This document shows positions 11,789-49,072 of a DNA stretch of 64,000 nucleotides, piece after piece. This stretch comes from Owenia fusiformis (Eukaryota). Under the pieces are notes generated by a model, which worked only from the letters and a program-made list of their open reading frames with translations, was not told the DNA's origin and did not search any database. The stretch spans positions 28,582,001 to 28,646,000 of the forward strand of contig CAIIXF020000001.1 in assembly GCA_903813345.2 (NCBI GenBank). The letters are read 5' to 3'. Each line of letters begins with the position of its first letter. The stretch's first letter is position 1. Made by a program: the position numbers and the translations under genes.

Positions 11789-14490
11789 TCAAAAAGTATA
11801 TGTTGGAAAGATTGATATAGGTAGCATCAACAGAAATAGTCTATGTATGACAATGTGTTAACGTTGATATATGCTAAGTCAACAGAAATAGTATATGTTG
11901 GAAAGATTGATATAGGTAGCATCAACAGAAATAGTCTATGTATAACAATGTGTTAACATTAATATATGCTAAGTCAACAGAAATAGTATATGTTGGAAAG
12001 ATTGTTATAGGTAGCATCAACAGAAATAGTCTATGTATACCAATGTGTTAACATTGATATAATAATGCTAAGTCAACAGAAATAGTCTATGTATAACAAT
12101 GTGTTAACATTGATATATGCTAAGTCAACAGAAATAGTATATGTTGGAAAGATTGTTATAGGTAGCATCAACAGAAATAGTCTATGTATAACAATGTGTT
12201 AACATTAATATATGCTAAGTCAACAGAAATAGTATATGTTGGAAAGATTGTTATAGGTAGCATCAACAGAAATAGTCTATGTATAACAATGTGTTAACAT
12301 TAATATATGCTAAGTCAACAGAAATAGTATATGTTGGAAAGATTGTTATAGGTAGCATCAACAGAAATAGTCTATGTATAACAATGTGTTAACATTAATA
12401 TATGCTAAGTCAACAGAAATAGTATATGTTGGAAAGATTGTTATAGGTAGCATCAAGATAAATAGTCTATGTATACCAACGTGTTAACATTGATATATGC
12501 TAAGTCAACAGAAATAGTCTATGTATAACAATGTGTTAACATTGATATATGCTAAGTCAACAGAAATAGTATATGTTGGAAAGATTGATATAGGTAGCAT
12601 CAACAGAAATAGTCTATGTATAACAATGTGTTAACATTAATATATGCTAAGTCAACAGAAATAGTATATGTTGGAAAGATTGTTATAGGTAGCATCAAGA
12701 TAAATAGTCTATGTATACCAACGTGTTAACATTGATATATGCTAAGTCAACAGAAATAGTCTATGTATAACAATGTGTTAACATTGATATATGCTAAGTC
12801 AACAGAAATAGTATATGTTGGAAAGATTGATATAGGTAGCATCAACAGAAATAGTCTATGTATAACAATGTGTTAACATTAATATATGCTAAGTCAACAG
12901 AAATAGTATATGTTGGAAAGATTGTTATAGGTAGCATCAACAGAAATAGTCTATGTATACCAACGTGTTAACATTGATATATGCTAAGTCAACAGAAATA
13001 GTCTATGTATAACAATGTGTTAACATTGATATATGCTAAGTCAACAGAAATAGTATATGTTGGAAAGATTGTTATAGGTAGCATCAACAGAAATAGTCTA
13101 TGTATAACAATGTTTTAACATTAATATATGCTAAGTCAACAGAAATAGTATATGTTGGAAAGATTGTTATAGGTAGCATCAACAGAAATAGTCTATGTAT
13201 AACAATGTGTTAACATTAATATATGCTAAGTCAACAGAAATAGTATATGTTGGAAAGATTGTTATAGGTAGCATCAACAGAAATAGTCTATGTATAACAA
13301 TGTGTTAACATTAATATATGCTAAGTCAACAGAAATAGTATATGTTGGAAAGATTGTTATAGGTAGCATCAACAGAAATAGTCTATGTATAACAATGTGT
13401 TAACATTAATATATGCTAAGTCAACAGAAATAGTATATGTTGGAAAGATTGTTATAGGTAGCATCAACAGAAATAGTCTATGTATACCAACGTGTTAACA
13501 TTGATATATGCTAAGTCAACAGAAATAGTCTATGTATAACAATGTGTTAACATTGATATATGCTAAGTCAACAGAAATAGTATATGTTGGAAAGATTGAT
13601 ATAGGTAGCATCAACAGAAATAGTCTATGTATAACAATGTGTTAACATTGATATATGCTAAGTCAACAGAAATAGTATATGTTGGAAAGATTGTTATAGG
13701 TAGCATCAACAGAAATAGTCTATGTATAACAATGTGTTAACATTAATATATGCTAAGTCAACAGAAATAGTATATGTTGGAAAGATTGTTATAGGTAGCA
13801 TCAACAGAAATAGTCTATGTATAACAATGTGTTAACATTAATATATGCTAAGTCAACAGAAATAGTATATGTTGGAAAGATTGTTATAGGTAGCATCAAC
13901 AGAAATAGTCTATGTATAACAATGTGTTAACATTAATATATGCTAAGTCAACAGAAATAGTATATGTTGGAAAGATTGTTATAGGTAGCATCAACAGAAA
14001 TAGTCTATGTATAACAATGTGTTAACATTAATATATGCTAAGTCAACAGAAATAGTATATGTTGGAAAGATTGATATAGGTAGCATCAACAGAAATAGTC
14101 TATGTATAACAATGTGTTAACATTAATATATGCTAAGTCAACAGAAATAGTATATGTTGGAAAGATTGATATAGGTAGCATCAACAGAAATAGTCTATGT
14201 ATAACAATGTGTTAACATTAATATATGCTAAGTCAACAGAAATAGTATATGTTGGAAAGATTGTTATAGGTAGCATCAACAGAAATAGTCTATGTATACC
14301 AACGTGTTAACATTGATATATGCTAAGTCAACAGAAATAGTCTATGTATAACAATGTGTTAACATTGATATATGCTAAGTCAACAGAAATAGTATATTTT
14401 GGATTGATTGATATAGGTAGCATCAACAGAAATAGTCTATGTATAACAATGTGTTAACATTAATATATGCTAAGTCAACAGAAATAGTCT
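11789..14490. repeat. Satellite array, 95-bp unit made of related 43-bp (A) and 52-bp (B) subunits
   Basis: A = TCAACAGAAATAGTATATGTTGGAAAGATTG(A/T)TATAGGTAGCA; B = TCAACAGAAATAGTCTATGTATAACAATGTGTTAACATT(A/G)ATATATGCTAAG. Copies are near-identical with occasional ABB units. Confidence 0.97.
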
Positions 14491-16350
14491 AGGCTATGTA
14501 TTTTTATGCGGAAACATTGATGTGTAACGACATCAAATATTACACTTTTGGCTGAAGAGCGAAGGCAGAAAAACGGAAACAAGACGCAAACTGAGGAAAT
14601 TTGAAAGGGGTTTAAATGACAAGTTAATTAAAAAGGGTACAGTAATCTTCATGGAACCTCAACATCATACTGAATTATCTTAGTAATTGAATGGCCTTAT
14701 AAACGATTAATCGAATAAACATTTATTCTGTACAAGACAATAATAGGTGGGGAAGCCTTTGTCTTACGTTACTGTTGTTTAATATCTTGAAACTATGACA
14801 ACCATACTAGAAGTTCTCATGATCGCTTCTTCATTGGGACTTTATTTGGTTTCTGTATGGGAAATATAAAAATAAATATCAATAATAAATAGTATGTCAC
14901 ATTAACGAGCATGGTGCGTCATCCTCGATACTGAACAAAGTGGTTTTCTACTAATTAAGGAGAATCCCACTGAATTCGACTGGAACAAAGAAATGAAAAT
15001 GTGTTTCCTAATAAACAAAAATTATCGGTCGTAGTTATGCCTTAATTACTAATTATTTGTAATTGTGCAACAATAATTCGAAAATAACGAATAGCGACAA
15101 AGAAAAGTACAAAGTAACCTAGGTAAGTTAATCCATCTGTGTATTCTTGCATCACAATAGGATTAAGAGGGATTAGTTCTGCTCATCAAACCTGTGTTAC
15201 AAATATCTAAACAGAGAAAAGACAAATCTAGGCCTCTGGAACCGGACTAAATGCAGTGATATTTTTTATCAGCATTACTTTTGGATTAGCAGGCTATTTT
15301 ATTATGGGATTAGACCGGAATAGTTAAGATTTCTCTCGCTCGCTTTTATTTCAACAATTGGTGATTCAAATTAAAGAGAACGAGTTTAGATCGCTTTGAA
15401 CGACACTCAGCTGTGTCTGCCTACCCCTACCTTTGATAAACGGTAAGTTAATGTTATTTTTTAGGTATGCTCTATTTGGGGCTTTATAAGATAGGCTCTT
15501 TCATATATTTGTAGATTTAATAGGGAAGCATTTACAAGCAAAATAATTAACTATAGAGAGCTAACAAAAAGTAATCTGTTGTAAATATTGAGATGTCACA
15601 TACATAGTTCAAACTTTAAACGTACCCTTTTAAATTCAAACATTAAATTTATAAAAGGCTCTTTCTCGAGTCTGTCAATGAAATACTTTAAATAGCTCCA
15701 CATTTTGGAAAATATAAACAAGTCAAGGATGATGGAAATGTTAATTATGTTAAGAATATCACTTTTAGGACAGCAGACAACGTCGTCTCGAGGATAAATG
15801 GATTAGAATGTGACTGAGCTGTTGTTGGACATGACGAAAATCCAACCACTTTGCTCCTAGATACAGACTACTGGCAGGTAAGAAATGTTTATGATGAATA
15901 AAAAAACAGAAAAAGTTCAACAAAAAGTTTGGCCTGATTGTCCGCCTATAGGATGATAAATTATAAAATATAGGAAATTGAACTAAAGCTTTTTCATAAC
16001 ATATTTTATTTTACTCTGACGTTTCAATTTCTTGATAGGGATTAAGACCATTCTTTCGAACGCCAAAAATATACAATATTTCATTTTTCATTTTTGTGAC
16101 AAGTATGCTAATTGGACAAGTGCAATGTATGTTTATTCAAAACATACAATTCTATTTTAATTAAATGCTTTTATTGATCAGTTCAAATTGTTCAATAAAC
16201 ACCAGTGTGATATATTATTTCATTTGTATCATCCGCTTATCAATGAAAAATTAATGATCTACGCACAGATCCCTAGCAGATAATAGGACTTTACAGTAGT
16301 AGTTCCTTAATCAAGAATTCCAGTGTCGGGACGCTCGGAATAAATTTCAG

Positions 16351-22400: not shown

Positions 22401-25400
22401 GGACAAATGGCACATCAGATCCTGAAATCAATGTAGTTCAACTCACCCTGGTGGCTATTGTATATGGACTTACATTTCTTATGGGAGCAATAGGTGGGTA
22501 GGTGAATATGATGCTATGGTCTAGTATCTAGTATTATTGACCTCTCCAAAGGTTGACTGTAAAATGTATATACCGACTATGGGGTTAACAATTGAGATAT
22601 AACTTTGAAAGTCAACTGAATGAAGAGGTCTATGTACAAGGTAGGGATAACTTACTATAAAAACTAATATACGGTACAAGGCATTAACATGCAAAATGTC
22701 TCCACCTGCCATTTGTTACAGACGCCGACCACCATTACGCCAACCTCCGCACGCCGAACACCGACCACCGAAAACCGTCCATAAATTAAAAAAGTTGGTG
22801 GTGACATAAGAGAAAACTGAACAGAAAATATTGCACTATCTAACCAATCAAAATTGAGAATTTATAAAAACAAAACACATAGAAATACATATGTGTCTGT
22901 ACAATTATAAGCCATTAAATTATATAATAGATCTGCCTCCTACATAAAAATTCATTTAAGATGTAGGGACATGATGCAAATCTCTTGTCTTGTCATCATC
23001 TTACTTATAATGACAATATTTCACATCAACGATTCTTAATGAAATTCTAATGTAAACTACTGTCTCTAACCTCTGTTTAAACAGTTTACTGTAAAATCAA
23101 ACGTACATCGAAATAAAAACAAATCAGTTTAGTCAAAATCAAATTAACTGATAAGCAAACATTTTATTGTTTAATATTAGAGTTAAATAACGATTGTGAA
23201 ACAGCGGACATGTGTTATTGGAAATCAAAATTATCGCTGAATGTGAACTATTGTATCAAAATAAATTACCTTTATATCAATGGTTTATGTAATACATATG
23301 TATGTGCTATGTTGATAAGTTATATGTTTGTGCTCTATTTTAGGTAATATATTTGTGTTGATCGCTGTCCTGGCGTTCATCAAGACCGCTGATATCACCA
23401 ATGTGTTCTTATTAAGTCTCTCGTGTGCGGACTTACTACTCATACTCGTCTGCCTACCATTCAGGGTATGTGTACATTAACTAATTTTCAATTTGTTTAA
23501 TTCTTGATTTCATTACGGAAATAGAAGCTTAAGAAAGAAAGCGCGTTAACTCCGGTTTGTGCAAAACTGGATAAAACAGTTAGATTGTTATTCGCCGTGA
23601 TGTGTTGGAAGCTTTACCATCCCATTTTCTCCTAAAGGGGAAGCATTTTATCGTTGCTGAACTATTATAGTGACCTCAGTTGATCCGACCTCTACCTACT
23701 GCCAGGCCCGTAGCCCGTAAAATTATCTCAAATGCTTATTTGCATGCTTTTTTCACAATTTTGAACAGTTTCCGCTTAATTTTTTCAAATGTAACCCTCT
23801 GGAATCTTTCAGACCTTTAGATTTAACCTTTTGTGACCTAAATAAATTAAACGTTACCAATGATTTCAAAACACATTTTTGGTGCATTCAATGCATTGAA
23901 CTTGAACTTTAACCTTGTGTGACCTCGATAGCGCAAATGTTTGCCTTGTACAATGGTGAATGACTGCCAGAAAATAATCGTATCAACCATTCACTTACAC
24001 TATGGAACACAAACTTTATTTATCTGAAAAAATAAGAACTGTTAAACAAGCAGCATGAGAATTTCCGAAATCTATGAGGTATGTGCCTCATTTAATTATT
24101 AAAACGAAATAAATTCGCGTTGTAAGAGGGAAGTAATCCTTAAGCTTTGATTTACAGAAACGCAGCTTTGTATCCAGGTTTAGACATGGTGCAAGTTACA
24201 GAGCCTTGTGATTTTTCAATTATCATATGGTCCTTCATTGGCTCAAACGCATTTCCCTTAAACTTCAAAATCAGTACTAAAAATATGATGAACATGGTGA
24301 CCCTGACATACTTTATCCTGAAATGGTTTTAATACAGTTGGACTGTCTCCAGGGGCTTAATGTCACTTTAAAATAAATATAAGAAAGTGCCTACATCAAA
24401 CACAGATAATGAGGGAATTATAGAGAAAGTGTTGGCACTTGTCGTGTTTATATTAAGAAGAATGCTCATTTACCATCTATGAAAAATCGTTTCACGTCGG
24501 TCTAAAATTAATCTCCCACTCGTGTTACTATTTGTGTCTCAGTAATGTCTGTGTAAAATGTGCTTGAATTTTGATTGATTGTCGTATTTTCTTTATTTGT
24601 CTATACGTTTCTTGTTGACCTAATATGGTTTATACACAATATATGATTTGCATGGATGTGTTTTTCCAATGTTACCCTTTGTGGTTTCTCATTACAGGCG
24701 GTTGAGTACTTTATGGATGGCTGGCACGCTCCAGGGTGGACGTGTTACATGGTGACATACTTGGTGAGGGTCAGTTTCAGTTGTTCGATCCTTACATTGA
24801 CTATGATGGCAGTAGAAAGGTAATTTGCATCGCATATGGTTCTAAAACAAATTGAATGAAGTAGACATGGGCAAGATGAAGTATATGACAAGAGGGACCG
24901 ATATTGTTTGTATGGCAACTCCACACCCCAAGAATGGCTCTTAAGTAGACTATTTTAAGGAAAGCCAAACGAAATTGTCTTATCCCATGTTCCGATTTCA
25001 CCTTAGGCTCCCGTTTTATAACTTACTTAAACTAGTTTTGAAACTTAACAGCTTCCACGTGCATTATGATCAGAGAGATGTTCCTTCCTTTTCTCTTTTT
25101 AGATACTACGCCATTTGCCACGCATTGAAGTCCAGATATAAGTCTACAACCAAGAAGGCGTGGCTCACCTGTGGTATCGTGTGGTTGGCATCGTTTGTAC
25201 TGGCACTGCCGACGTTTTTCGCCCATGTAGGTCATTTTTGCTTTCAATGGAAAAGTATGCACTCAGACCGATCATCAATTCGCATTATTAAGAGCTTTCA
25301 TGAGTTTTGAAGTATTAGACTTTTAAATCTTTATCTTTGTTTGACTTCTGAATTATGATCTGAATAAATTATTTGTATTTTTGTTGCCGCACTAACAAAC

Positions 25401-29060: not shown

Positions 29061-32000
29061 CTAAGATTTCTCCTGAGATACAATTCTGGAAACTGGTAGA
29101 ATATTGAGGTTATCTTTATATTTCTGAATGTCATCAATGCCTATAGCCCTACCCCCACTTTGGCTTAGAATGTCAGATACAGATTCGTAGCTGAGAGTCC
29201 ATTCCTTCGATATAACAGATGATGTATCCCCCGAGCTAGTTACTGAGGTAGGTTTATCTTTGAATTTCTGAGTGTCCTTGTCACCGGATTCTTCATTGGG
29301 TGTTTTATCATACGCAGATATCTGTAATTCATGGAAATCATTGGTAGTAGTGATACGTGAGAGGAATCAGTATACTTTAGATAATAAAATATTTCTTAAC
29401 AAGGCATAGACTTGCAAAATGTCACCACATGCCATTTGTTACACTTGCCACATGCCAACCACAGAAGAGAGACTATAACAATATGTTACCACTTCTGGTG
29501 GTGGCATTAAAATCATCTAACAATGGAGTAACCCAATATGTCCCTTCTAAACAACTTTCCAAGATGTTTTGTGTAGCAAATAAAATCATTAATCATTCAA
29601 ATTTTATGCTTTTGCTTTCATCTGAAAGGAGAAAAATAAAGAATGAGTCATACCTGTACACTGAGTTTTCTCCTGTTGTCATTAGCCATCATGACTGTCT
29701 TATACCATGCCTTGTACTCATCTAGCTTCAGTGTACCAATCTCGGTGATCTGTGATACGAAATATTGTAATCAATAAAATGTTCATAATTTTTTTTTTTT
29801 TAATAATCATTTATTTCAAATATATACTATACATACGATAATACAATAATAACGTTTGACAAGGTTACAAGTAACATTATTGTCAAACTGAAAACCTTAA
29901 TGTAGTTACATTCATAATTTTTACTTTAGAAAGAAAGATTCATTATTTTATTTAAAATGGTCAAGTTGTCAAGTCATAAAATGGTCAAGTTGTCATGTTC
30001 ATAATTCCAGTGGTGTTCGGGTTAAAGAGCTTTTATAATATATGCATATTAACTGAAAATTGTTAGATGATAAAAATGATAATTATACATTTCTCTATAT
30101 CGATAGCTCATGTCAAAAAACTATAAATGACAATACTCAAGCAAAAAGTTCAAATATTCATACCTCTTTAGGAATTCTGTCAAAGAAGTAGAGTTGCGTA
30201 AGGATCTGGTTCCAATGTCTGTCCACTTCCTCTCCCATGTTGCTGTCCTCACATCTCTTCAGTTTCACCAGAGTGTCAATCTATAATGAATGCACAAACA
30301 AGCATATTATTGTACCATACCAAATTATCATATCATGAGGGTGTCAACCTATAATGCATTATCAAAGGCGTACCAGATGGTTGCAAATTTGCTCCAAATT
30401 TCAAAATTTTCCTGGGGGAGAACCCCCAGACAACCCTGAATGCTCGTTTTTGTTTCACTCAAATCTTGTTCCTGTGGTGGTGGCGTACTACTTAGAAAAA
30501 TAGCGCTATGCCCATGATTATGATATCATCTAATATTCTCTTTTCCAAAATGAAGCACTATTTTATATTTTAAAAATTTGATTCAAATTTTAAAAATTAT
30601 ATGTTGAAATATTACTACTACATTCAGCTATTGCCATATAAGCATAAACACAGAGATGGAAATGGGCTATAAAGTTCAGTAATGTTAATACATACAAGGG
30701 TGTCAAACAGCTCCTGTGTCGTATCAGCTACCATTTTGCCAAACTCCTTCACAAAGTTCTCTATGTGGTCATTTAGCTCACTCATACTGTAAAACATGCA
30801 AATAAATTTTTAGACTGATTGTTGTGATTTACAAAGGACAAAATCATGGACATTAGACAGAAAGGCACATTTTTGGTCACATTCATATTCATATATCATA
30901 TGTATATCTCGGCCACTCAATTTCAAAGATACACTATAGTACCAATACACTATATACCTAGTACACTATAGTCCAGATTTTAACATTCCATTCATCCTTA
31001 AAATGAGGAAACTGAAAATGATCATATCATTCTTACCTGGCAGTGGATGTCTGGCTCTGCACTGTCACTGAAAGGCCTAAGATGCCACATGTATCTCTAT
31101 GGTAAGAGAACACACCATACCCAAGCTGCTCTCTTGTGCGCAATATGTCAAAACATGGCTCCTCCATTTGCATCTAAATGGTCATAATAAATGTGCAATT
31201 ACATGTGATAAATACTTAATGGTGAATACACCAATGTACACTGAACAGAATTCTCTCCTAAAATGAGATGTCATATTTGATATGAAATTAGCATTAAGAT
31301 TGGACATACTTCAATGCTTCTATATGATCCCTAAAGAACACAAACGAATGAAACTGAGTTCCATAAAATTATCATATTCAGATAAACACAATCATGTAAG
31401 AATATTACTGACATATAGCAAATTATTTTCTACAAATTTCTACAAAAAATGAACTTACATTCAACAGTTCATTCACGACAGCCATATGTAGTGTTCCAGG
31501 CCCTGTCTGGTAGTAGTTGGTGATCCCAGTGTTACAGTCACCTTCATTGAATGTCTTAACACGGACATAGCTATCCTTAGTGGGCAGCTCCACCACACGT
31601 CGCTATAATAAATAAATACAAAGATAAAGTATGAGCTATCAAATTGTGTTTGCATAAGACACATAATACTTGCAAAAATCAATGTTGAATACACCATATC
31701 CAAGTTTTCTTTGGGATCATTCCTAAATTATGGTGATCTGAGACAGACAAGCATGAGAATGCATGCAGTAAAAGCAAATAAATAAACTTCCTTTGAAACT
31801 GCATTCAGTTAAGAGATCAGACCAAGTTCAACTAGAAAACAGCACCTCCACGGAGTAGCAAATCCCACCGAACAAAACATATTTTGATAAATAGCCGCCA
31901 TCTTGAAAATTAATGAAAGACCAAATCCGTACAATGTTATTTAAGTCATCAAGGATTATGTTTTTTGCAAAAAAATGGTGGCCATTTTTATCAAAGTTTA

Positions 32001-35000
32001 TGTTTTTTAGGAAAAATGGTAGCCATTTTGATATTCAGGTGCTACCTTGGAAATATTTTCTCAAACAGAGCTAGTTTGTGACTAAGCATCAGCATATAAA
32101 ATTTGAACAATATCTGTCCATTTGTATTTGAGTTATCAAAGATTAGGTTTTTCATGAAAAATGGCAGCCATTTTGAAATTCAGTGGCCATGTTGAAATTT
32201 TCTTCTTGAGCTGAGCTCCTTTGTCCCTAGGCATCAACATATAAAAAAGATAATGTTCTTTTATGAAAAATGGTAGCCATTTTGAAATCCAGCTGACATC
32301 TTGAAAATTCCCTCTGCAGTAGAGCTCCTGTGTCCCTAGGCATCACCATACACAATTTGAACAATATCCCTTGACTAGTATCTGAGCTCTCAAAGATTAC
32401 ATTTTTTATGAATAATGGTGGCTATTTTGAATTGAGCTGTCATATTGCAAATTCCCTCTTGAGCTGATGACACTAGCAGCTAATTACAACAAAAGCCTGA
32501 TGTCAAAGTGCCAGTATAAGCAGCAACAATACTTAATCATTTTAAATTACCTCAACAAACCCAGTGCCATGGAAAGGATCACTTGAAAACTGTTGTTAGA
32601 TGCATATTTAAATCTTTGAGGAAAAGTACATTTGGCTATATTGCATACTAACAAACATAGCCATGTCAGACTGACCTACAGTATAAAGACACAAATAAGC
32701 ATCTACTGTCAGATTGACTTTTACCATAACACAAACACAAATAAGCACGTGGATAACAGACACAAACCAGAACAACGGCAACGCCAAAGCGTAGCGAATC
32801 CCATCGAACAGAAATGGCTGGCATTTTTACAAACGAATAGCAAATATCATAAAACAACACACCAGAAAGGCCACCATTTTCAAAATGGTTGCTCACTAGC
32901 CAAGTTGTCATCAGAAGAAATAATATGCTTTTCAGTAGCCACCTCTAAAATTTTTGAAAAATCGCACACGTACTTGTAAAATAACACACATAAAAATGGT
33001 GGCCATTTTTCAAAATGGCCAACTACTCCCTAAAGTTTTATTAGACAATGTGCCATGCTTAAAGTATTCACATATCAAATATGAACAAAATTGCTCCACT
33101 ACTTTTCGAGTTATAGTAAAATACGTTAAAATGGCGGCCATTTTTCAAAAAAATTTTCAAAATGGCCGCCTTCTACCAAAAGTGTCATAGGACAGTGTGC
33201 CATGCTTATAGTATTCAGATACCAAATATGAACAAAATCGCTCCACTACTTTTCGAGTTATAGTAAAATACGTTAAAATGGCGGCCATTTTTGAATTTTT
33301 TTTTCAAAATTAGAAAGGTGTGTACTAAAGTTGCTTGCTGTTACACACGAGAAGCAGAGAAAGAAACTATTCAGATACCAAATATGAACAAAATCGCTCC
33401 ACTACTTTTCGAGTTATAGTAAAATACGTTAAAATGGCGGCCATTTTGAAAAAAAAATTGAAAAATGGCCGCCATTTTAACGTATTCTTCTACCAAAAGT
33501 GTCTTTAGACAGTGTACAATGCTTATAGTATTCACATACCAAATATGAACAAAATCGCTCCACTATTTTTTGAGTTATAGCAAAAATCGTAAAATGACGA
33601 GTAAAGGCCGCCATTTTTCAAGATGGCTGCCATGTGCTTCTTTAATATCTACATTTGTAGCATTATTAATGTCCTTTATAATTTTTTACATTTAAAACAT
33701 ATTGATATAACAGTTTTACATATTGCACCTAAATTACTGTAAAATCGGCACTAAAATGGCCGCCATTTTGAAATGAGCGGCCATTTTGAAAATCGGCTTT
33801 CGAGCAGAACTTCTACCCCCATAAGGTATATGTGTACAAAATATGAACAAAATCGGGCCAACGGTATTTGAGTTATTGCCCGGACGGACGGACGGACAGA
33901 CGGACGGACATGTCCGTACGTAAAGACGTACGTACGTACGTACGGACGGACGGACGGAGGCGTTCCCTATATCCCTCCGAACTTCGTTCGATGGGATAAT
34001 AACCGTCCACTTAGCATATGCATACATGAGGAACAGACGAAGCTAAACACATAAAGAGAGATTTAGTATCTAAAAAAAAGTTTAAAAACTAAGATGAATT
34101 TCTCTGGAAAAGCTATCATCGTGACTGGTTCAAACAGGGGTATTGGTAGGGCAACAGCATTGTTGTTTGCAAGACAAGGAGCTAATGTGCTAATCCATGG
34201 AAGGGACCTTGAGACACTTGAACAAACTGTGAATGAATGTAAACAGATTGGTGCTGAAAATGACAAGTTTCCAATGGTACAAGGTGATGTTCAGGACCCT
34301 GGATTATTGAAGAAAATATTCCAAATGGCAGTTGATGAATTTGGAAAAATCGACGTACTTGTGAATAATGTTGGATGTGTTGGATCAGATGGAACCGAAG
34401 AAAACTTTGATTTAAACATCAACGTTAACCTGAAAACACCAATATTTCTGTCGCAGATGTGCTTTCCAGAATTAAAGAAGACTCATGGAAATATTGTAAA
34501 TGTTTCCTCCGTTTATGCTGAACGCCCTAATGTCGTTGGGGCACTTTTTTACAGTATTGCAAAGGCTGGAGTAAGCCAGTTCACGCGATGTGCTGGTATA
34601 GAGTTATAGATGCCGTTTGTCCAGGATGGGTCAAAACCCACGAACTGACAAGAACTGGATTGTTTAAAAGTAAAGATGAAGAGGATGCTGAATATGAGAG
34701 AGCAACAAAGCAAGTGCCCCTCCCTGCAGACAAAAGGATTGGGACTGCTGAGGAAACTGCCAAACTTATTGTGTATCTTGCATCTGATGATGCTTCTATG
34801 ATGAATGGTGCATGTATTGTTCAGGACGGTGGGATGAGCTTGGTTGGAATTGATACAAAGACAATTGAAAAGTATAACAATTAGAAAGGTGTGTACTAAA
34901 GTTGCTTGCTGTTACACACGAGAAGCAGAGAAAGAAACTAATATAACACAAACAATGTTAATTCTGGCACATACCCTCTTATACTATACATACCCCCTCC

Positions 35001-38000
35001 ACTTCATAAATATAAAGACAAAAGATTGAAGATATGATGAGAAAAAGAATGATCATCAAAAAGATCAAGCGATCGGTTGCCGTCACCAATCTAATTTAAT
35101 CTGATTTCTTAACTCTACCAATATTCACTCTTTCTAGTATGCCTTCTGCCACATTATATGAGGCACTATCATGATTTCCTAGGACAAATCTTCAGCTTCT
35201 ACTTATTTTAAGACACTGACACAAATTTTGATGGAATGGTGTTGAACTTTTCATGCATTTATATACTATAGAGCACAGGAGCTTTCATTCTCTTAAAAGA
35301 CCACAGAAAGCATCACAACAGATTTCAGACAGTCATATGTTGGATTTTGGCTGCTTTCTGAGGATTTAAACAGGTGCATGTGTTAGGCCAATGCATTTTC
35401 TCCAGGAAAAGTACTCATAGAGATGATAAAAAATTTAGACTTTGAGACAGGGAAGGTGAAAACAAGCCACCCACATGTTTTTTTTAAAATGTTGTCCTGA
35501 TTTTCAACCCCTTCCATCCCTGCTTTTCCATTTTTTGATGCATCAATATGTTGCATTTTGAGACACAGTTAACCCCTTGAAAGGAATATATGCATTCCTT
35601 TTAGATAAAGTGGAAAACAATATTTTCAATGTTATTTTCCCATAGGGAAAACTCATGCAATCTATTGTTTTCTGCTTAATTTTGGTCACCCATAACGGAT
35701 ATCTTTAAACCCCCTGAAGGAATGCATTATTCCTTTTAAAGGGGTTAACTGTGTGTCATAACACAACATATTGATGCAACAAAAATCGACCTATTACAGG
35801 GGTAGAAGGGGTTGAAAATCAGGACAACATTTCAGAAAAAATATGTGGGTTGTTTGCACCTTCCCTGTCTCAAAGTCTATATTACTTTATCATCTCTTAG
35901 CTATGAGTACTTTTCCTGAAGGAAATGCTTTGGCCTAACATAATATGCACCTGTTCAAATCCTCAGAAAATAGCCAAAATCCAACATATGACTGTCCGAA
36001 ATCTATTGTGATACTTTCTGTCCTCCTTTAAACAAATTTTACCATTTACATTTGAGAACCATTCATTTATCAATACTTCAAGAGCATGTTATAACTTCAA
36101 TGCTAAAGTCTATGAAATATTTTTTTAATATTTGGACTATCAGCATTATATATTTTGCTTGACTTACATTTTAGATAAAGCTTTACTACATTACTACTGA
36201 GCATAAATCTGTAATTTGTATCAAATCAAATAATGATCTGAAGTTTATGTTTCTTCCATGCAAAATAAAGTTGGTGAATTTTAGGTGTGTGTTTTCAAAA
36301 CAACAAAAAAAACTTTGCCAAATTTACTTTATATCTTAGCAATCTTTATCATATTCTCTCCAATAACACACTCTGTACAAAAAATGGCCACCATTTTGAA
36401 TTGAGCAGCAATACTGAAAATTCCCCCCCGAGCAGAGCTACTACTCCCATAAGGCATAAACCTATAAAATTTGAATGAAATCTGTCAACTGGTATTTGAG
36501 TTATCGCCTAGACAGACAGAAGAACAGATGGACGGACTTCTTGTAATATATAAATACACTGCCCCACATGTTTTGATTCAGAGCAACAGAGAAGCATACA
36601 ATCTTTACATATAGATAAATTCAGACTGACAGATGGATGGAGGCCCTTACTATATCCCTACAGATATCCGTCCACTAGTATTCAAGTTATCTTCTGGATG
36701 GACGAACATCTTGTAATATAAAAATACACTGCCCCACATGTTTTGATTCAGAGCAACAGAGAAGCATACAATCTTTACACATGGATAAATTCAGACTGAC
36801 ATTTGGATATCTACATCGGACTGGTGGACAGATGAATGGACAGATGAATGGATGAACGGAAGAATGGATGGCTTGTCTACATCCATCTTAAACGGATCGG
36901 ACGGAAGAATGGATGGCTTCTCTATATCCATCTCAAACTTTGTTCGGTGGGATAATCAACTGTTACAGAATCAATGAAAAGTGTTTGACATACAGAAATA
37001 AAAAAAAACAATGTTTAAAGTACTGTCATTGCCTGATGAGATCATTATGACCTCCTGGTCACAATTATTCTTCAAAATGAGCAGTGTTTGAGCAAGAGTG
37101 AATGACTCTGCAGCTGAGCAACCGCTATTAATAAACAAGGCATTAATATGCAAAATGTCATCTCTTGCTATTTGTTATAGACGCCGACCCAAAATGCCGA
37201 ACACAATCCACAAAAGAGTTGGAGACTATAACAATATGTCAAAACTACAGGTGGTGACATAAAAATCTATTTAAGCATCCACTTACATCAGCTAGGGCAT
37301 ACCCAGGTAGAACTCTGCACTTCACTTTCTCTAAGACATAACCATACATATCTTTACACTCCTGAGGAAGCAGGTTGCCATGGAAGTAAGTTTCAACCAT
37401 TAATCTGGATTTGAACTGCTCAACCCACCCTAGCAACATTGGCAGTGTGACATCATCAATCATTTGTCGTCTGCTCACAACCGTCCAATAAGATTGCATC
37501 AGAATCTCAATTCGGACTTCTCTATAATATTTGATGTATTTCTGTTTTATTATTTATTCACACAAATTAAAGCATGTAAACATTACAACTCCATTATAAT
37601 AACACACACCTCATTTTTTAAAATGATATATTTTTGATCAAACTAATGTTATTATTCATTAATAAGTTTGAAAACACATTTTTAGCCTGCCATTTAACAG
37701 ACTGATTAGGGGGGCTAAACACAGATCATCAACATATTGATGATATGTATGTCATACAGGATATAGAAAAGATCCTCATTGTTTACCTATTAAGTTTAGA
37801 TGGTTTTATCATTTGATTGAAGTAGGTTCTTGTGAGTGTCTCTTTGACAGCACCAAAGACATCCTGGTCCACTTTGAAGCCACTGAGGTAGTCTATGATT
37901 GTCTCAAACAGTTTCTAAAATAAACAGTCAACTACAAGGTACAGTACAGTAAACCTATATATCGGAACACATCTCTTATCTGAACACCTCTGAATGTAAA

Positions 38001-41000: not shown

Positions 41001-44000
41001 TACCAACAGACTCACATCTTCATCTGATTGTCTTTCAGTGCCAAAATAAGATTTCCCGGAAAAAAAACATGACGTCACGATCAGAACCGGTTATGGATTT
41101 TAATCCGCAATGCATTATGCAACTCGAATGTAAATTCAAAAGTGTTCATGTTATACTGTGTTCTGATTGGCCAGAAAGGAGTAATACTTCTCAAAATCAT
41201 CTCATGGTTAAATGCCTTTTGGTTGTAAGATTTTAAACAGCACTGAGTTATGTAACAGGATCAACTCAACGTGTATAGTTGCTATACTGTATTCTGACTG
41301 GCCAGAATGTAATTCTGCATGACTAGCTTTGTGTAAACGCACCACAGGGTCGGAAGCTCTAATTGAGGTATTATATTTTTCGCTCATCGGAGGAAAAATC
41401 GTGGCTCCAAAGTAGTCAAAGTTGAATCATTTCCGTACTGCATTGAATGCAGTGGCAATCAATTACACTGACACTTTATAAGCACGTTCGGAGATCATAC
41501 ACTCTAGCAAAATGTTCAAAACCTGTTCTGATCGTGATGTCATGATTGGCACTTGACATTGGGTTCCCGATTTTGAACATCAAATTTCACATTTATAGAA
41601 AGATTTACAAGAACGGTACATGGTTTGACTTTTAAGTGGTATTTACTTCATTTAAAACATGTATAAATTGAATTTTGACTCCATTAGCATCGCACAGACA
41701 CTTTAAGGGCCACCACCCTCTTTACCCTGAAGCACACTGAACTTTGCCAACCAATTTAAAGACTGATTTTCAGTAGAGTTCATAGTTCTTAATCAAAATA
41801 CTGTATAATGTTTACCTGTTCTTGCCACCTGAAACTGTTGTCTTCAATGGTTTTGATTTCACTCCATATTCTCTCACAAGGTCCCTCATTTCTCAACATC
41901 TGTATGTACTCAAACAAAACACTCAAAACCTAAAATCATAAGGTTTTGAAAACATTACTTAGTAAACCTAATCAGAAAAGAATTGACCACAAGAAAATTA
42001 TTCTAAAGAAAGAATCAATATTGAAATATAAAGAGCCCTGGTTGCAGTAATATGACGTTTGGCTACTAGGTAAGGTTCATGGGTAAAATACTGTAGATAC
42101 ACTTAATTTAGCTCCCGTTTTAATTTGACGGATTGGGGGATTCAGAAAATCCGCCAAATTAAAAATCTGTCAAATTTCAGTTTGGAATTTTTGTCCAATG
42201 CACTTCAGAAATGAAACTTCAGGGGCCCCTTTCCTGTCAACATGTCATCAATTCTACATTATTCCAAAGGAAATACAGAAAATACCTTAGTAAACACCTG
42301 TCCTAATGACATATACAAAAACTAAACTTCAGTCCTGAATCCGCCAAATTAAATATTTACACCAATATTTGAAATTGAGCAAATCTGTCAAATTAAGAAG
42401 CGTCAAAATAAGTATATGTACAGTAATTGGTCAACAGAACATAAACACAGTTTGTGCAAATAACCAAGGTCTGACTGATGCCAATGTTTAAAATAGGAAA
42501 TGTGTACCTCCTGATAATGGTCCAGGCCCTCATCAGTCAATGTTACATTTATAGAGAAGGACGCCATGGTAGTGTTGTGTTCAAACCCTGTCTCTCCATT
42601 ACCACTGTCAAGCTTCAAAGCCCATAATCTAAAAACAGATTCCAAATATCCAAATCATGCAACAAGTCTATATGTTTTCCAGCCTCTAATTACTTTATTT
42701 CCATTCTTATCAATTGTTTCTTTTATCCACTTAGACAAATGGTAATTGATAACAAGCCACTAACTTGCAAAATGTAACCCTCAGCCATTTGTTACTCCGA
42801 CCACCAGACACCGTCACAAAAAGGTTGGAGAGTATAACAATATGTCACCACTTGTGGTGGTGATATAATAACCACAACATAATGATAGGTCCCCAGCTTT
42901 GCTAATTTTTCTTTAATAATTGGGTCATTTATTGGCAATTTAACTTTACATACAATTAAACAACTTAAAAAATAGACTCACTTCTTCCTGAGGTAAGATA
43001 GGATGCTACCCTTGCCCTCGTGTCCAGTTAGCCAGCCGATATAGTGCAGTGGTTTGGTTCTTAAAAATAATGGCACAAAATACAATACATTTATACTATA
43101 TAAATATTGAATGCTTTCATTGAAATTCATATTTATGTATATAAATTTATTTTTATCTTACTACTATAGCTTGGGGTATAGATCTCAAGATTTAGTTCCT
43201 TATTTGTTTTCGCTATCTGCTAGTACCCTTATGTACCCTTATTCTTGGTCACTTCAGAATCCAATAACATAATTTATAGGCCAAGCATTGTCATTCTGGA
43301 CCATGGATAAGGCCAAGTGCTCAACAAGGTTTCAAAGGCAGTTATTGGATGAAGGAAAAATGGTCTACTCACCTATAGTACTGCAGCTGGCAGGGAAGAA
43401 CCCATGTGACTTCTATTTGGTGCACATTCTTTATTGGAACCCCTACAATATTAAATATACAAATTGAAGTCTTCCTTTCAAGTGTCCCAGCTGTGTATTA
43501 TGCTTTAACTGTACAATCAAGTGTATCCTGGTATAATATAAAAAAGATGAACATATAATAATTTACCATGACACGAAGGGTACATATATAGACCTAAGAT
43601 ATCTTTTTATGGTCTGTTGAATATTTGATTGATAAAAAAAGAACATACAATGTTGAAGTTACTATATGAACTTACATTTATACATCTTGTAGAACCGATC
43701 ATTGTTAAAGGGAGATTCCAGATTTGCGAATGATGGTTTGTCTTTTCCACTGAAATATAAATACATAAAACATTAAAATGACTACCATTACTTCAAAATA
43801 CAGGTGGAGCATTAAACCTTTATTAAAGATTACACATGAATGAAAGTCGAACTTACTTATGAGTAACAGGAGCAAATATTTCTCTCACCCATTTCTCCAA
43901 AGTATCCAAGGAATCTAAAGAAAATAGAAAGCATTAACATGACCAAATGTCATTAAAAGTTATTGCAAATGGTTAATATAAATACAGCACAGTCTCTACA

Positions 44001-47000
44001 ATTGGAAGTTGTAAGAATTTGCTGAACTCAGAATGGCGACCACTGTCCACAAATAAAAATTGACAGTAACTTTCGAAAATGTTTCAGTTTTACAGTATTC
44101 ACAGCATTCCTTATCATGTCATGTCCAACAGGTTTTTTTAAAGTTTCCTATTTCAAGATTATGCCTTTATGTGGGAACCAAACTATCTATTTCATGTATT
44201 TGGGAAATTGAGAATCAAAAATTAAGATCGAGTAAAGGCCATCTTTAAAAGTTGATGTACTACAGGTATTACAAAACAATTTCAATGACAGCCTTTTGTG
44301 TGGGGTACTAAATGTTTCTTACGTCTAGATTGTACTGCGAGAGTCATATAGTGGGAGGAGTACATGTTCTTGTGGAAAGTTTGAAGCCTCTCATAGATGT
44401 CTATGTTATTAGCTGCTGGATCTTCCTTTAGGCTTTTAGTGTTACCTAGAATAGGATCCAAACAAAAATATAAATAATCAAACCTTACCAAAAACAGCAC
44501 ATTCTTCACAAAAATACTGAAATATGAGAACAAAATCAACAATTTAATAACATATATTGTATTGTATTTTGGGCATCTTTCAAGATCTCGTAATGCTGAA
44601 CATAAGAGATATTATCACTACAAAAAGTGTTTGTTCTCCCCTCTTTCTGTAACAATCACTTGCTGTCCATTTTTCTTATTATAATAAGAATGTGCCTTTG
44701 TCTTGATTCTGTACGTACCCCACATGAATTTTCCCATGGGATGCCCAGGGGCTGCAGTCGTTCCCATCAACTGCTGCTTCTTGGCATTGTCTGATGCTGT
44801 ACTCATATCAAACTCTAAAATAATGTGATTTAATATTAGATATCCAAATCCATTGTGTGCTTGTGTTCTGCTCTAGTACAAATGTCCAATCCAGTGGATG
44901 CATCCTCTTTCTATTAAAATATTGAATAAGTTCTACAGGTACTGAAACAAGCAAATTCATTTCCTGCTTTAAAAAATGTTTTTCATTACTTCATTAAAAT
45001 CAAATTCTACCGTGCTAAATTAATTAGTAATCCAAACAAGTCATTAACCTGCAAAATGTCACCACCTGCTATTTGTTACAGATGCCGTAATTTGTTACAG
45101 ACACCAATGCTACAGACGCCAAACACCATTCACAAAAAGTTGGAGACTATAAAAATATGTCACCACTTCTAGTGGAGACATAAAAATCATTTAAATGACC
45201 ATACCACTATCAACAGCCTTTGTTTCTCTATCAACACTGTCCTGCTTCATGAGGGGCGAGATAAAGAATTGAGCAAACCTATCTAAGCCATCATAGAATT
45301 GCTGTCTTTGTATGTCAAAGTAAAACACTGTCTGAAATACAATCAAGACAATCTTACAGATCAGTTAAACAATTGTAAAAAATATTATCTTTACGACCAA
45401 AATGATTTGTTGCTCTGAGTTAGTGTTACGCATTGAATTATATAACCAAGCCTCGGTCGGTACGTTCGGTTCGAAAACTCCGATGTTCGGTTTTTTAACG
45501 GTTCGTTAATTCAGAAAAAAGTGCCGTTCGCTAAAGTAGAGGAAGCTGAATCTCGAAATCTATTTCGAAGATTTCAGCATTCTAAACGCTCAAAAGTCGT
45601 ACAAGGCCCACTGTTGGGGTTATTTTGGATTTCCAACGAGAGATGGTGTTCCTCTCCCAGGAAAGAACGATATGCCGGCTTTGCAAAATCATTATGGTAT
45701 ATGAGAAAGGTACGTGTGAAAAAATGTGAAAATTTGCTGTCTGCAGAAATAGAGTAGATCAGAGTTATACATGCTCCCGGGCCGCTTATTTATTATGAAA
45801 TCGCGCCATCTATTTATCATCGCATTAATAAAATACAATACAAAGTTAATGATTCATTTGTAAATAAAACTGACTTAGATCAGAGGTAAACATGTTCCCG
45901 GGCTGCTCATTTAAATAATGAAATCGCGCCATCTTTTTGAGTTATTTGATTTTTTACATTAAAGTGCGATAAGAACCGAAAACTGAACCAAAACCGAAAC
46001 CGAGGAGATAAAAACCTTGAACCGAACCGAACCGAGGAATTATGAAACCGTGAGAGCCCTAGTTTTGATGTGTGTAAGGTTCAACCACATAACAAATTTA
46101 ATTGTATGCAATGTAATATAACCAGAGACATATCTGTGATTTAACTAAAGAATGACAAGAATAGAAAAAATTATAGCATACCCTCTCACAGTCGGTAAAT
46201 GCATTGTCTGAGCCACCATACTTCCTGATAAACATATCAAAATCATTCTCATCTGGATATTTCTCACTGCCCATGAACACCACTGGAATAAAATATATAA
46301 TATGAATGTGAATATTATCTTTAGCACATTAAATAATGAAACAAATCAAATAAATCAGAAATGAAAAAATACTAGTGTATGTGCCTTTATTATTTGAATA
46401 TATCATATGGTAACTGTTATCATCAGGGCATCTGAACTGCTAAAGGCTTTCTGTAGTCCATGGGTTTTTCTTACAGCTAATAAACAATATTAGAATGAAT
46501 AGTGGAACTTGTTAAATTGTTGTCAAGCTGCAGCTTATGCCCATTTTGTATCTTGCAGTTCCACAAAGATATTCTAATATTTCAAAACATTGTATTGAAT
46601 TGAATTGAATTGAATAATGACTTACTGTGTTCCAAGAAATGAGCTAGACCAGGGATGTCATCTGGTTCACTAAAGCTGCCCTGCCCAATACACAGTGCAG
46701 CTGCAGACTGAAATGTTAAGATAAAATGACTCACTATAAATACATGTACAGTAAAATCTACTAACTATAAATACATGTACAGTAAAATCTACTAACTATA
46801 AATACATGTACAGTAAAATCTACTAACTATAAATACATGTACAGTAAAACCTTTCCAATCTGAACACTACTGGGACTGATCAAAAGTGTTCAGAATAGCA
46901 CAGGGTTCTCACTAGGCTTTTAGACTCCAGAGATTCTCCGGAGTCTTATATGTCTTAAACCCTTCTGCTCCAGAGTCTAATAGATTTTCCGGAGTCTAAA

Positions 47001-49072
47001 GTGTTTTTTCCAGAGTCTAATTTTACATTTTTGTCACATTATTTGCGGTAAAACTCTTGAGAAAATACATAAAACTGGATACAAACAAGTAATAGGAAGT
47101 CAAAAACATTTTACAAATAAATATTGGGATTAATGTAGCAAGATAATCTTAAAAAGTTTTTTGAAAAGTATACTAATAGGATATCTCTGAGTCTGATCTC
47201 ACATGGGGGAGATGTAGTCGCGATACCGCAAAAAAAGAAGTCACAATACCGCTAAAAATCCAGGTTCTGAAAATTTCCTGGTGAGAACCCTGTAGCAGGT
47301 GTTCACATTCAAAGGTATTTCTTAATTTATGAGTCAATCAGAGATTTATTTATACCAAGAAAAATGTTCACATGTTGATTTGCATTCAAATAAATCTGAA
47401 GTATATTTATACTTTATCTTATCTTTAAATACATCTTTTATAAACTTACAAGCTTCTCTGATGGGGAATCTTTAGCAGGTTTCTTTGAGCCTTCATTTTC
47501 ATCATCTCCCTCATCAACAGACATGTCAGAATCCTCACCATCTGCATCATCCCCACTCTCTCCATCTTCACTCTCCTCCTCTCCATCATCACTTACTGTC
47601 TCTTCTTTCTCATCTTCAACATCATCAGAGTCTTGGTCAGTTATCAACAAAGCTGTGAGGCCATTGGTCAATTTGATGCTTCTGAAATTAGAAAATAAAT
47701 GAAATTTTTGAATCAGAGTGAACCCTGAACATATTCAGCACAGGAAAACAAGAGATTTCCAGATATGCATGTATGTAATGGGAGATCAAATTATTTCTTT
47801 AGATTTTGTAGGTTATATAGTGCCACCAAACATCTAGTCTACCTCTGCTACCTGCTGGTCTATTATTATCAAGTTATTCGCACTCATAAATGCTCTTAAC
47901 AAATCTGGCTTTGTTTCTATATTCAAATTGCTAAGAAACTGAACTCTCTACCTCAAGACAGATATCAAATCATTTAAAGTCTTGAAAGGCAGAGGTTCGC
48001 TTAGTTCAACGTCGTTAAACTCAATAACGGCGTTCTTTATTATTAGGAATTTTCTTGGGGCCATTATTGAGTTTAACCTCCTTACTATTCTTTCCTTTGA
48101 TGCAAGTTCTGAATCCATCGAAACCATTTTTCCGCGATAACGTGCAACTGATACTTGACAATAATATAAAGTGACATTTCCGCATGTCCGTCATTGTGTC
48201 TGTTCGTCTGAGTGTCCCGGATCGTAAAATTAAACTACCAGCGAAACGAAATTGTTGTCAAATAGATTGATAATTATTATCGCGATTACTCGGGATAAAA
48301 AGATCAATTTTGAGGATAACAGGTATCTTTGATTAATTTATATAGCACGTATATACACGCAAAATAGTTATTAATTGCAAACCAACTGTTCGTTAATGCA
48401 GTGCCGTGATGACGGTTAATTCCTGAAACGATTTGCAATTTCGATGTTACCGAAACTGACCGACATTTTCGTCATATTCCAAACCTGTCTCCAATATTTT
48501 CGTAATTATGCATCAATAGGGTCTAAGGGGGATACGGGACGGGGTGTATGTGTTTATAAGGTATGTATGCATGCTTGAATCACATTCTTTGTGTAATATT
48601 GCCATGTTTTCAGGGTTCAATTAGTTCCGCTTGTCTAAACCTGCTGAACGATTAAATTAACGCATCAAAGGCAAAATGGTCATGGAGGTTAGACCTAGCC
48701 GGGCCATAACACATGTCAGATAAGAAACGAGGCCCGGGCTAGGTCTAATGTTGTTGGACTAAGGTTCGCTAAAACCATGGACTTCTAGGAGCTAATTAGA
48801 ACTTCGATGATGGTGATATACATGTATGCATAATGACATTATTAAACTGAGTTGACGGGTTACAAAAATGCACTGCTTCGTGGCTTCTGTCTTTCCAGAA
48901 AGATTTCCAGTTTATAGAGCTCTAGACTCTAGTCTAGAGTCTAAAGTGTTTTACAATCAATCATGGTTGCATGTATCCAACAGCAGATAACCCAGACATA
49001 CCTGTATTTCCTCTTATCATTTACAGATTTGATAGGCTCTACTGGGACATCTGATGAGTCTGCCAAAGTCAT
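29061..49072 (-). CDS. NRDC: Nardilysin (N-arginine dibasic convertase, M16A insulinase-family zinc metallopeptidase), ~1066 aa, 29 coding exons
   Basis: Exons (5'->3' on -): 49072-49002, 47681-47450, 46707-46626, 46282-46182, 45331-45205, 44814-44719, 44445-44323, 43914-43857, 43749-43676, 43442-43373, 43059-42982, 42628-42508, 41929-41816, 40603-40499, 40108-39979, 39878-39846, 39740-39690, 39490-39444, 39162-39087, 38700-38565, 38367-38301, 37914-37787, 37521-37287, 31602-31459, 31173-31037, 30786-30696, 30280-30164, 29749-29654, 29321-29061. All GT-AG and in phase (3201 nt). Motifs: DKRKYR..KLTNGL, long Asp/Glu insert (distinguishes nardilysin from IDE), GLAHFLEHMVFMGSEKYP, GHEGKGS, LRTREQLGY. 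Confidence 0.95.
32764..34002 (+). mobile_element. Inner, younger HINE/Helentron-like element with ~150-bp internal tandem repeats
   Basis: Subterminal IR ATCCCATCGAAC (32798-32809) / GTTCGATGGGAT (33986-33997); (GGAC)n/(GTAC)n microsatellite 33881-33958; terminal hairpin ATCCCTCCGAAC-TTC-GTTCGATGGGAT. Confidence 0.8.
34094..34884 (+). pseudogene. Intronless short-chain dehydrogenase/reductase (classical, FabG-like SDR) copy with a frameshifting deletion
   Basis: ORF 34094-34609 has TGSNRGIG, GDV, NNVG, NVSS and YSIAK. The C-terminal half (DAVCPGWVKT...YLASDDASMMNGACIVQDGG) continues in the -1 frame to 34884. The usual A..GIRV segment is missing at ~34606. Antisense within nardilysin intron 23. 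Confidence 0.85.
35297..36027. mobile_element. Palindromic TTAA-flanked MITE (Kolobok-like)
   Basis: TTAA at 35293-35296 and 36028-36031. Long imperfect arms, e.g. GACAGTCATATGTTGGATTTTGGCT vs AGCCAAAATCCAACATATGACTGTC. Confidence 0.85.
36540..36801 (+). repeat. Direct duplication of ~92 bp
   Basis: CTTGTAATATA.AAATACACTGCCCCACATG...AATTCAGACTGACA at 36540-36631 and 36710-36801. Confidence 0.85.
37945..38130. mobile_element. pogo/Tigger-like MITE
   Basis: TACAGTAAACCT ... AGGTTTTACTGT with GAACAC repeats. Confidence 0.6.
38836..39063. mobile_element. pogo/Tigger-like MITE
   Basis: TACAGTAAAACCT ... AAGTTTCACTGTA with GTTCCACT repeats. Confidence 0.6.
40925..41702. mobile_element. TTAA-flanked element (Kolobok-like)
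   Basis: TTAAAGTG...CACTTTAA ends; internal IR CATGACGTCACGATCAGAAC (41068) vs GTTCTGATCGTGATGTCATG (41525). Confidence 0.6.
42089..42425. mobile_element. MITE with TACTGTA...TACAGTA termini
   Basis: TACTGTAGATACACTTAATTT vs AAAATAAGTATATGTACAGTA; internal CGCCAAATTAAA repeats. Confidence 0.65.
45451..46061. mobile_element. hAT-like element, left end degraded
   Basis: Right end GTGAGAGCCCTA preceded by AACCG repeats; left side carries complementary TTCGGTT repeats. Confidence 0.55.
46733..46849. repeat. 31-bp tandem repeat (~3.8 copies) spanning a MITE terminus
   Basis: ACTATAAATACATGTACAGTAAAATCTACTA repeated; the last copy runs into TACAGTAAAACCT. Confidence 0.9.
46901..47292. mobile_element. 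CAGGG-terminated MITE with 5-bp TSD (hAT5-like), nested in a pogo-like MITE
   Basis: TIR CAGGGTTCTCACTAGG / CCTGGTGAGAACCCTG; TAGCA at 46896-46900 and 47293-47297. Confidence 0.8.
48002..48761. mobile_element. 760-bp element, TAG termini, 9-bp TSD (AcademH-like), each end forming its own hairpin
   Basis: TAGTTCAAC...GTTGGACTA; AGGTTCGCT at 47993-48001 and 48762-48770. Confidence 0.85.

Follow-up and report, generated by a model that had tools for sequence, protein, structure and literature searches.

The window analysed here is a 64,000-nucleotide stretch of the genome of the annelid Owenia fusiformis (assembly GCA_903813345.2, contig CAIIXF020000001.1, positions 28,582,001 to 28,646,000 of the forward strand). 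Its minus strand carries a gene that we assign to peptidase family M16. In a 5.7-kb intron of this gene lies a repeat resembling the non-autonomous Helentrons known as HINEs, which occupies 5.1 kb (31830-36955) and is split by a 3.9-kb insert. The insert holds an intronless gene of the short-chain dehydrogenase/reductase (SDR) family, a very young second HINE and a TTAA-flanked miniature inverted-repeat transposable element (MITE) (Table 1). A first-pass annotation had described this composite as lying inside the intron, which the GT-AG splice sites and the Peptidase_M16 match confirm, and had offered two origins for the SDR: capture followed by mobility with the element, or a later landing in it. 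Our analysis supports the later landing, and the locus gives the appearance of an isolated repair accident, of a type already known, and not of a gene-carrying mobile element. Positions are those of the window unless a contig is named; genome searches covered 499.5 Mb.

Table 1 Features of the composite and its host intron in the window
Feature	Position	Strand	Basis
Host exon downstream of intron	31459-31602	-	Splice sites and open frame
Host intron, 5,684 bp, GT-AG, phase 0	31603-37286	-	Splice sites, frame
Outer HINE, 3' part: T-rich end, hairpin (~31841-31859), subterminal inverted repeat, ~145-bp array	31830-32467	-	Family-copy alignment
3' tail of another dispersed repeat, SINE-like by shape	32460-32550	+	Nine other places, 78-86%
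SDR 5' flank, homologous to C7 flank	32591-32764	+	77% over 139 bp
Inner HINE, very young	32765-33999	-	Genome copies, C7 empty site
62-bp exact copy of SDR end (34879-34940)	33308-33369	+	Self-comparison, genome search
Intronless classical SDR, frameshifted	34094-34884	+	Pfam adh_short, adh_short_C2; alignment to C7
SDR 3' flank, homologous to C7	34885-35125	+	Score 118 vs shuffle maximum 54
Single-copy sequence, no C7 counterpart	35126-35292		DNA search, comparison with C7
TTAA-flanked MITE, long inverted arms	35293-36031		87-nt arms at 90%, TTAA at both ends
Single-copy sequence ending in repeat fragment (~36313-36367)	36032-36367		DNA search, alignments
Outer HINE, 5' part: terminal repeat unit, swollen microsatellite region, 5' inverted repeat, subterminal inverted repeat	36368-36955	-	Family-copy alignment
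Two tandem modules of inner-family 5' type	36527-36808		Similarity to distant HINE end
Host exon upstream of intron	37287-37521	-	AG/GT and continuous frame

The arms of the outer element overlap in the terminal repeat unit

Read along the minus strand, the outer element runs from a 5' subterminal inverted repeat (subTIR) with an inverted repeat, through a microsatellite and an array of ~145-bp units, to a 3' subTIR, a hairpin and a T-rich end. HINEs have been defined by subTIRs of 12-15 bp lying a few nucleotides from the 5' end and tens of nucleotides from the 3' end (PMC4067079). The exact 15-bp inverted repeat reported in the first pass is present (31862-31876 / 36939-36953), 2-3 nt off one end of the element and 32-47 nt off the other; in family copies the perfect stretch measures 12 bp, which one C-to-T change extends to 15 bp in the window. 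Fifteen delimited copies of the family, chosen from 29 loci because both ends were visible, are 754-1584 bp long and have both termini in common with the window copy. The 3' stem-loop and the 5' inverted repeat fold only weakly (-1.1 and -1.8 kcal/mol, without shuffle control), and the flanks are compatible with insertion at a TT site. With its subTIRs, stem-loop, inverted repeat, microsatellite plus tandem array and TT site, the element bears out the earlier Helentron/HINE-like identification, and we classify it on sequence grounds as a non-autonomous Helentron (HINE).

The outer copy is old. Its arms lie 15-20% from the family consensus (21/138 sites for the right arm) and, at non-CpG sites, 10-19% from consensus or near-consensus copies; the best genome match of left-arm positions 31860-32000 reaches 81% (best 40 of 939 candidates).

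Both ends belong to one abundant repeat family, the left arm corresponding to positions 0-716 and the right arm to 647-817 of one 874-bp family copy. The array ends at 32467, where the 3' part breaks off 69 bp into the terminal repeat unit, and restarts at ~36368-36376. The previously noted break points (~32468 and ~36376) thus hold, whereas a simple resumption of the array does not, as ~69 bp of the terminal unit stand on both sides of the insert. Both overlap pieces score highest on the terminal unit in all four reference copies (98-102 and 84-92), compared with at most 76 and 66 on inner repeat units. They differ from each other at 19/69 sites, or 12/60 non-CpG sites (20%), and lie 6 and 8 of 60 sites off consensus with a single private change in common.

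Composition of the insert

At the left junction the HINE is joined to the SINE-like tail at an imperfect microhomology of ~7 nt, and at the right junction a fragment of a third repeat meets the start of the terminal unit at one of ~6-9 nt, likewise imperfect; both were judged against other copies of the flanking repeats, without a chance control. The insert had been described as containing unique sequence, which is true in part: its two outermost pieces (Table 1) are fragments of other repeats.

The second related element proposed at 32764-34002 is real, with ends at most 3 bp from those positions. Thirty-nine other copies are 98-100% identical to it (best 40 of 1,611), its terminal structures fold more strongly than those of the outer copy (-5.4 and -8.5 kcal/mol, again without shuffle control), and it sits 94 bp ahead of the SDR start codon. 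The closest SDR paralog, an intact gene on another chromosome, C7 (the C7 paralog), provides the empty site and reveals a TT insertion without target duplication. Within this inner HINE, a 62-bp copy of the SDR end replaces ~48 bp of a repeat unit at microhomologies of 2-3 nt, its source lying 1.5 kb away. In the genome search the 62-bp sequence occurs at two places only, the patch and the SDR end, and the patch is missing from 8/8 complete inner-family copies (3 of 11 loci lacked an end). It is an unambiguous small templated insertion in a young HINE array.

The two tandem modules in the right arm of the outer element match best a solitary, decayed HINE end located 1.2 Mb from them (C1:29837209-29837377), with 98% identity (4/135 mismatches) against 89% for the next locus (best 40 of 157), and are probably a second templated patch copied from there. 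The MITE, too, was correctly recognized; pieces related to it were found at 77-87% in 3 loci among those compared.

The nested SDR was long under selection before it broke

The SDR family yielded 111 matches among 143 scored candidates, the C7 paralog being closest to the window copy at 91% identity and the next at 76%. Window and C7 genes are sisters with full bootstrap support in a tree of 25 sequences. The family as a whole comprises ~100 intronless copies, which occur singly or in clusters on twelve or more large contigs. The C7 paralog encodes an intact 269-aa protein that resembles the classical SDRs 1xhl, 1spx and 1xkq in the PDB and matches them over its length (best E 1.5e-45), whereas the window copy has no in-frame C-terminal third.

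The gene had been taken for whole. Compared with the intact paralog, however, it carries a net 19-bp deletion near 34600-34612 (a loss of 25 nt, partly offset by 6 nt that duplicate the neighbouring bases), which shifts the frame after codon 170 and leads to a stop at 34609 after 171 residues; the C-terminal third, including adh_short_C2 positions 169-236, falls in another frame. The glycine-rich cofactor motif and the catalytic YxxxK lie within the first 171 residues. A complete Rossmann domain in one frame, as a functional SDR would have, is absent from the window copy, and the enzyme activity has presumably been lost.

Between the window SDR and C7, 30/177 synonymous and 27/606 non-synonymous differences were counted (dN/dS 0.24, Fisher P 2.5e-7). 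Selection on the window branch itself was assessed by one-outgroup polarisation, branch lengths by codon position and a neutral expectation. A neutral branch would be expected to carry ~52-56 non-synonymous changes, for which even all 27 would be too few (P at most 1.3e-4, equal rates assumed); polarisation assigned 8 synonymous and 11 non-synonymous changes to the branch and left 11 unassigned (P 0.046). This deficit argues that the nested SDR was under selection for most of its history and broke late.

Correspondence with the C7 locus

Homology between window and C7 extends from ~32614 to 35125 once the inner HINE is skipped, a weak 5' extension to 32591 not rising above shuffles. The flanks differ at 76/408 non-CpG sites (18.6%), or ~9% per lineage. 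On C7 the 3' flank consists of two pieces 2.1 kb apart. Between them, behind the intact SDR, lies a LINE-like fragment (C7:4263275-4265420; L022:5275-7420), a decayed ORF2 end with an A-rich tail that is single-copy in the DNA search and is split by an old outer-family HINE of its own; of this stretch the window has, as read by eye, an A-rich remnant only. The C7 locus may have been the donor of the window gene.

The edges of C7 homology coincide with two repeats, which belong to unrelated families; we therefore rejected the notion that the C7 flanking repeats are halves of one SDR-split element. At each of the two loci the SDR stands ~700 bp from a HINE; this equal spacing was dismissed as a shared trait, the sequences not being homologous. 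The HINE beside the C7 gene was likewise rejected as the source of the window arms, being no closer than other copies: it differs from the window's right unit at 16 non-CpG sites, within the 10-17 among the 25 matches listed. About 8.5 kb from the C7 SDR, we also observed an open frame of 203 residues that is rich in cysteines and begins like a signal peptide (C7:4253324-4253932, minus strand; L021).

No sign of spread in the genome

The DNA searches skip common words and overlook diverged copies (the 34870-35292 query missed the C7 flank), so that only recent daughters are excluded. Within this reach, the genome holds no near-identical SDR copy beyond the 91% paralog. The 34870-35292 query matched itself and the 62-bp copy in the window only (2/2 candidates), and 36032-36400 returned itself plus three pieces of 36-56 bp (4/4 candidates). 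Among the best candidates scored, searches with the SDR, the 3' insert and the left arm yielded no other locus with the same ends-plus-SDR unit, several of which would have spoken for mobility; for lack of a second copy of any of the three we rejected a mobile composite.

We further compared 26 other SDR loci, chosen by us from the 111 matches and mostly dispersed, with 20 random 10-kb loci. HINE pieces were present in 9/26 and 7/20, respectively, indicating no enrichment, and none of the 26 is enclosed by HINE halves, so HINE-driven dispersal of the SDR family was rejected. With no daughter copy, none of the 26 loci enclosed and a frameshifted gene, capture followed by mobility is not supported for this SDR. 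Retroposition of an SDR transcript was rejected as well, since the right junction has no poly(A) and the segment includes upstream flank; the family is intronless anyway.

Helentron machinery is present in the genome, with 63 Helitron_like_N matches and Rep/helicase genes whose open frames exceed 3,000 aa. Open frames of 2,000-3,400 aa contain dozens of Helitron/Helentron Rep domains, which cluster on C13 and on unplaced small contigs; such frames suggest recent activity. A HINE is expected to have 11 bp or more of its subTIR in common with an autonomous Helentron; an autonomous partner with the present subTIRs was not found in three Rep/helicase loci examined across 19 kb each, nor in five more examined across 3.6 kb. 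In two of those three larger loci, an inner-family HINE lies directly upstream of the Rep/helicase open reading frame in the same direction (L183:1-760, L188:5676-6233), which may mark insertion at autonomous-element ends. Elsewhere on C7 (~5152200-5153800; L095:4235-5760), a second frameshifted SDR is flanked by two different inner-family HINEs, with a 5' end ~150 bp upstream and a 3' end ~90 bp downstream; here the HINE termini face the gene, opposite to the window layout.

How the gene may have come to lie between the HINE halves

The explanation we favour, to which we would give about an even chance, is that template switching of the repair type placed an SDR segment into a resident HINE. 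One HINE copy would have inserted at a TT site in the intron, and around the same period its array would have broken within the terminal repeat unit. Repair synthesis would have switched by microhomology to the SDR locus and copied ~2 kb, comprising a SINE-like repeat remnant, the 5' flank, the whole gene and the 3' flank, and would have returned to the element ~69 bp early, thereby doubling these 69 bp. Having kept its own upstream flank, the copied gene, nested in antisense orientation, would have continued under purifying selection until the young HINE arrived ahead of its start codon and the frameshift arose; the MITE may have arrived together with the segment or at a later time.

We infer a single-element origin and a repair mechanism because the two arms align to a single family, their overlap being confined to the diagnostic terminal unit, because the 20% divergence of the doubled 69 bp matches the 18.6% of the SDR flanks against C7, and because both junctions fuse HINE to unrelated sequence at short microhomologies. 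The single copy, without daughters and without HINE enrichment at SDR loci, points the same way, as do the 62-bp patch and the probable 1.2-Mb patch at the same locus. Several observations weigh against it. The doubled 69 bp are nearly independent, and the 28% divergence of independent copies is not rejected for them (P 0.11). The C7 locus is without the SINE-like tail and ~500 bp of the window's 3' insert, and as a donor must have lost them later. It also sits on another chromosome, whereas gap filling has been reported to prefer near templates, and the breakpoints in that study show small element gaps, not duplications (PMC8277862). Neither an empty element nor an empty intron was seen in our searches.

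The near-independence of the overlap copies (6 and 8 of 60 sites from consensus, one change in common) would be expected had the SDR been the older resident of the intron, with two same-orientation HINEs inserted either side of it, each losing its inner part by microhomology-mediated deletion, and with C7 as daughter or sister. We consider this history unlikely, yet it is the alternative that survives best, and it corresponds to the case of two unrelated insertions which the first pass had named as refuting its own reading. One-ended pieces are common (5/10 pieces in the 20 random loci, two of them from one gapped copy), each junction fuses to a truncated other repeat as deletions would leave it, and the outer parts of the insert that are missing at C7 would be accounted for. 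It requires, however, complementary halves of the same family and strand within 2 kb, both broken in the terminal unit. A rough density estimate puts this at ~1 in 100,000 per gene, or ~0.3 cases genome-wide, and so not negligible. The 2.1-kb LINE-like stretch that C7 appears to keep (read by eye) hints, for its part, that the window copy is the derived one.

Somewhat less probable still is an uptake of the SDR during rolling-circle synthesis or at another site, followed by a single move of the composite by Helentron transposition, with the source lost and no surviving daughters. The ages overlap (arms 10-19% from consensus, SDR flanks ~9% per lineage), both termini are intact at a TT site, the Rep/helicase frames over 3,000 aa and a HINE family of 98-100% identity speak for active machinery, and composite or end-bypass transposition has been proposed for DINE-1-linked duplicates (PMC4067079). 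Against a move, genome searches able to detect recent copies found no source or daughter composite; end bypass places cargo beyond the 3' end, not within the array (PMC6544945); and the C7-side HINE, besides matching the window's right unit no better than the other copies listed do, lies on the wrong side of its gene.

It is improbable that an assembly error or an uncommon allele accounts for the frameshift, or even for the layout as a whole, and that the population carries an intact nested gene: selection over most of the branch implies a late loss that may not be fixed, but 25 nt lost and 6 nt repeated from adjacent bases would be unlike a homopolymer-type error, and no intact near-identical protein occurs among 8,000 scored candidates of the protein collection, a weak point given that the C7 protein is missing too and only two distant Owenia fusiformis SDR paralogs were returned.

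Returning to repair-type insertion, a bolder extension can be formulated, which we regard as doubtful: HINE arrays in this annelid would be landing pads for templated insertion, one of which acquired, from another chromosome, an entire enzyme gene together with its upstream flank, a gene that long worked as an antisense nested gene; the composite would have been, or in haplotypes with an intact allele would still be, a movable gene-bearing HINE. Both termini of the composite are kept, in a genome with an active Helentron family.

Comparison with known systems

HINE or DINE-1 elements have been described in a mite (HINE-Mo), in Drosophila (PMC4067079) and in oyster (Cg_HINE; PMC7492417). The window element resembles them in its subTIRs, 5' inverted repeat, 4-nt microsatellite, central tandem array, 3' hairpin, TT site without duplication and non-coding nature; unlike them, the outer copy is split by a 3.9-kb insert with a host gene.

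Closest in mechanism may be the single-copy, microhomology-bounded fillers known as Pack-TIRs, which arise by gap filling independent of transposition and are the usual class in animals at about two per 10,000 terminal inverted repeat (TIR) elements (PMC8277862). In both cases an old, degenerate element in single copy has microhomologous internal breakpoints and an identifiable paralogous source (PMC8277862). The present element differs in being a rolling-circle HINE instead of a TIR cut-and-paste transposon, in having as filler a whole gene from another chromosome, and in a 69-bp duplication replacing the small gap usual in that study. By analogy, then, the locus would work like a Pack-TIR without being one. 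If Pack-TIR rates carry over, ~25,000 HINE pieces (extrapolated from 10 in 200 kb) would translate into a handful of such cases per genome.

DINE-1 (DNAREP1) sequence flanks young functional duplicates in Drosophila (PMC2211543), which, like the window SDR, are dispersed DNA-level duplicates under selection with HINE-type breakpoints; in the window, by contrast, complementary halves of one family surround a duplicate that is intronic and now frameshifted. Gene capture by HINEs has been predicted (PMC4067079), and acquisition of filler DNA has been shown for the Hel1 Helitrons of insects (PMC6544945). Their internal insertions with short junction homologies are like the 62-bp patch, but were then amplified with the element, as no filler of the window was. 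Our literature search, which did not extend to case lists in supplements, found no report of annelid genes captured by HINEs and no account of the present locus.

Whether HINE/DINE-1 elements act as gene movers or as passive sites of repair and recombination is left open in the available parts of PMC4067079 and PMC2211543. The window locus is a dated example leaning to the passive reading, and shows that selection can persist on a whole gene flanked on both sides by HINE halves. Because it is a single case whose gene is dead and has not spread, it can illustrate the question but not decide it.

Host gene and further repeats of the window

Removal of the composite would leave a host intron of 558 bp. 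The upstream exon matches insulin-degrading enzyme chains (E 1.5e-5), in keeping with a nardilysin-like M16A peptidase, and the downstream exon taken alone has no Pfam match. Across the gene, Pfam Peptidase_M16 and M16_M matches support the family assignment, and the PDB matches are to insulin-degrading enzyme only. An HFLEH motif (HXXEH type) is accompanied by an acidic stretch at 47441-47734; as we take an acidic insert in an M16A peptidase to be the mark of nardilysin, these features would fit that enzyme.

A short dispersed repeat occurs in six copies of 69-87% identity in the window (37126-37274, 29390-29514, 22676-22730, 42751-42871, 45034-45194 and 54970-55082). Finally, a tandem array of 2.7 kb spans 11791-14491, with 43- and 52-bp subunits arranged in 95-bp and higher-order periods.

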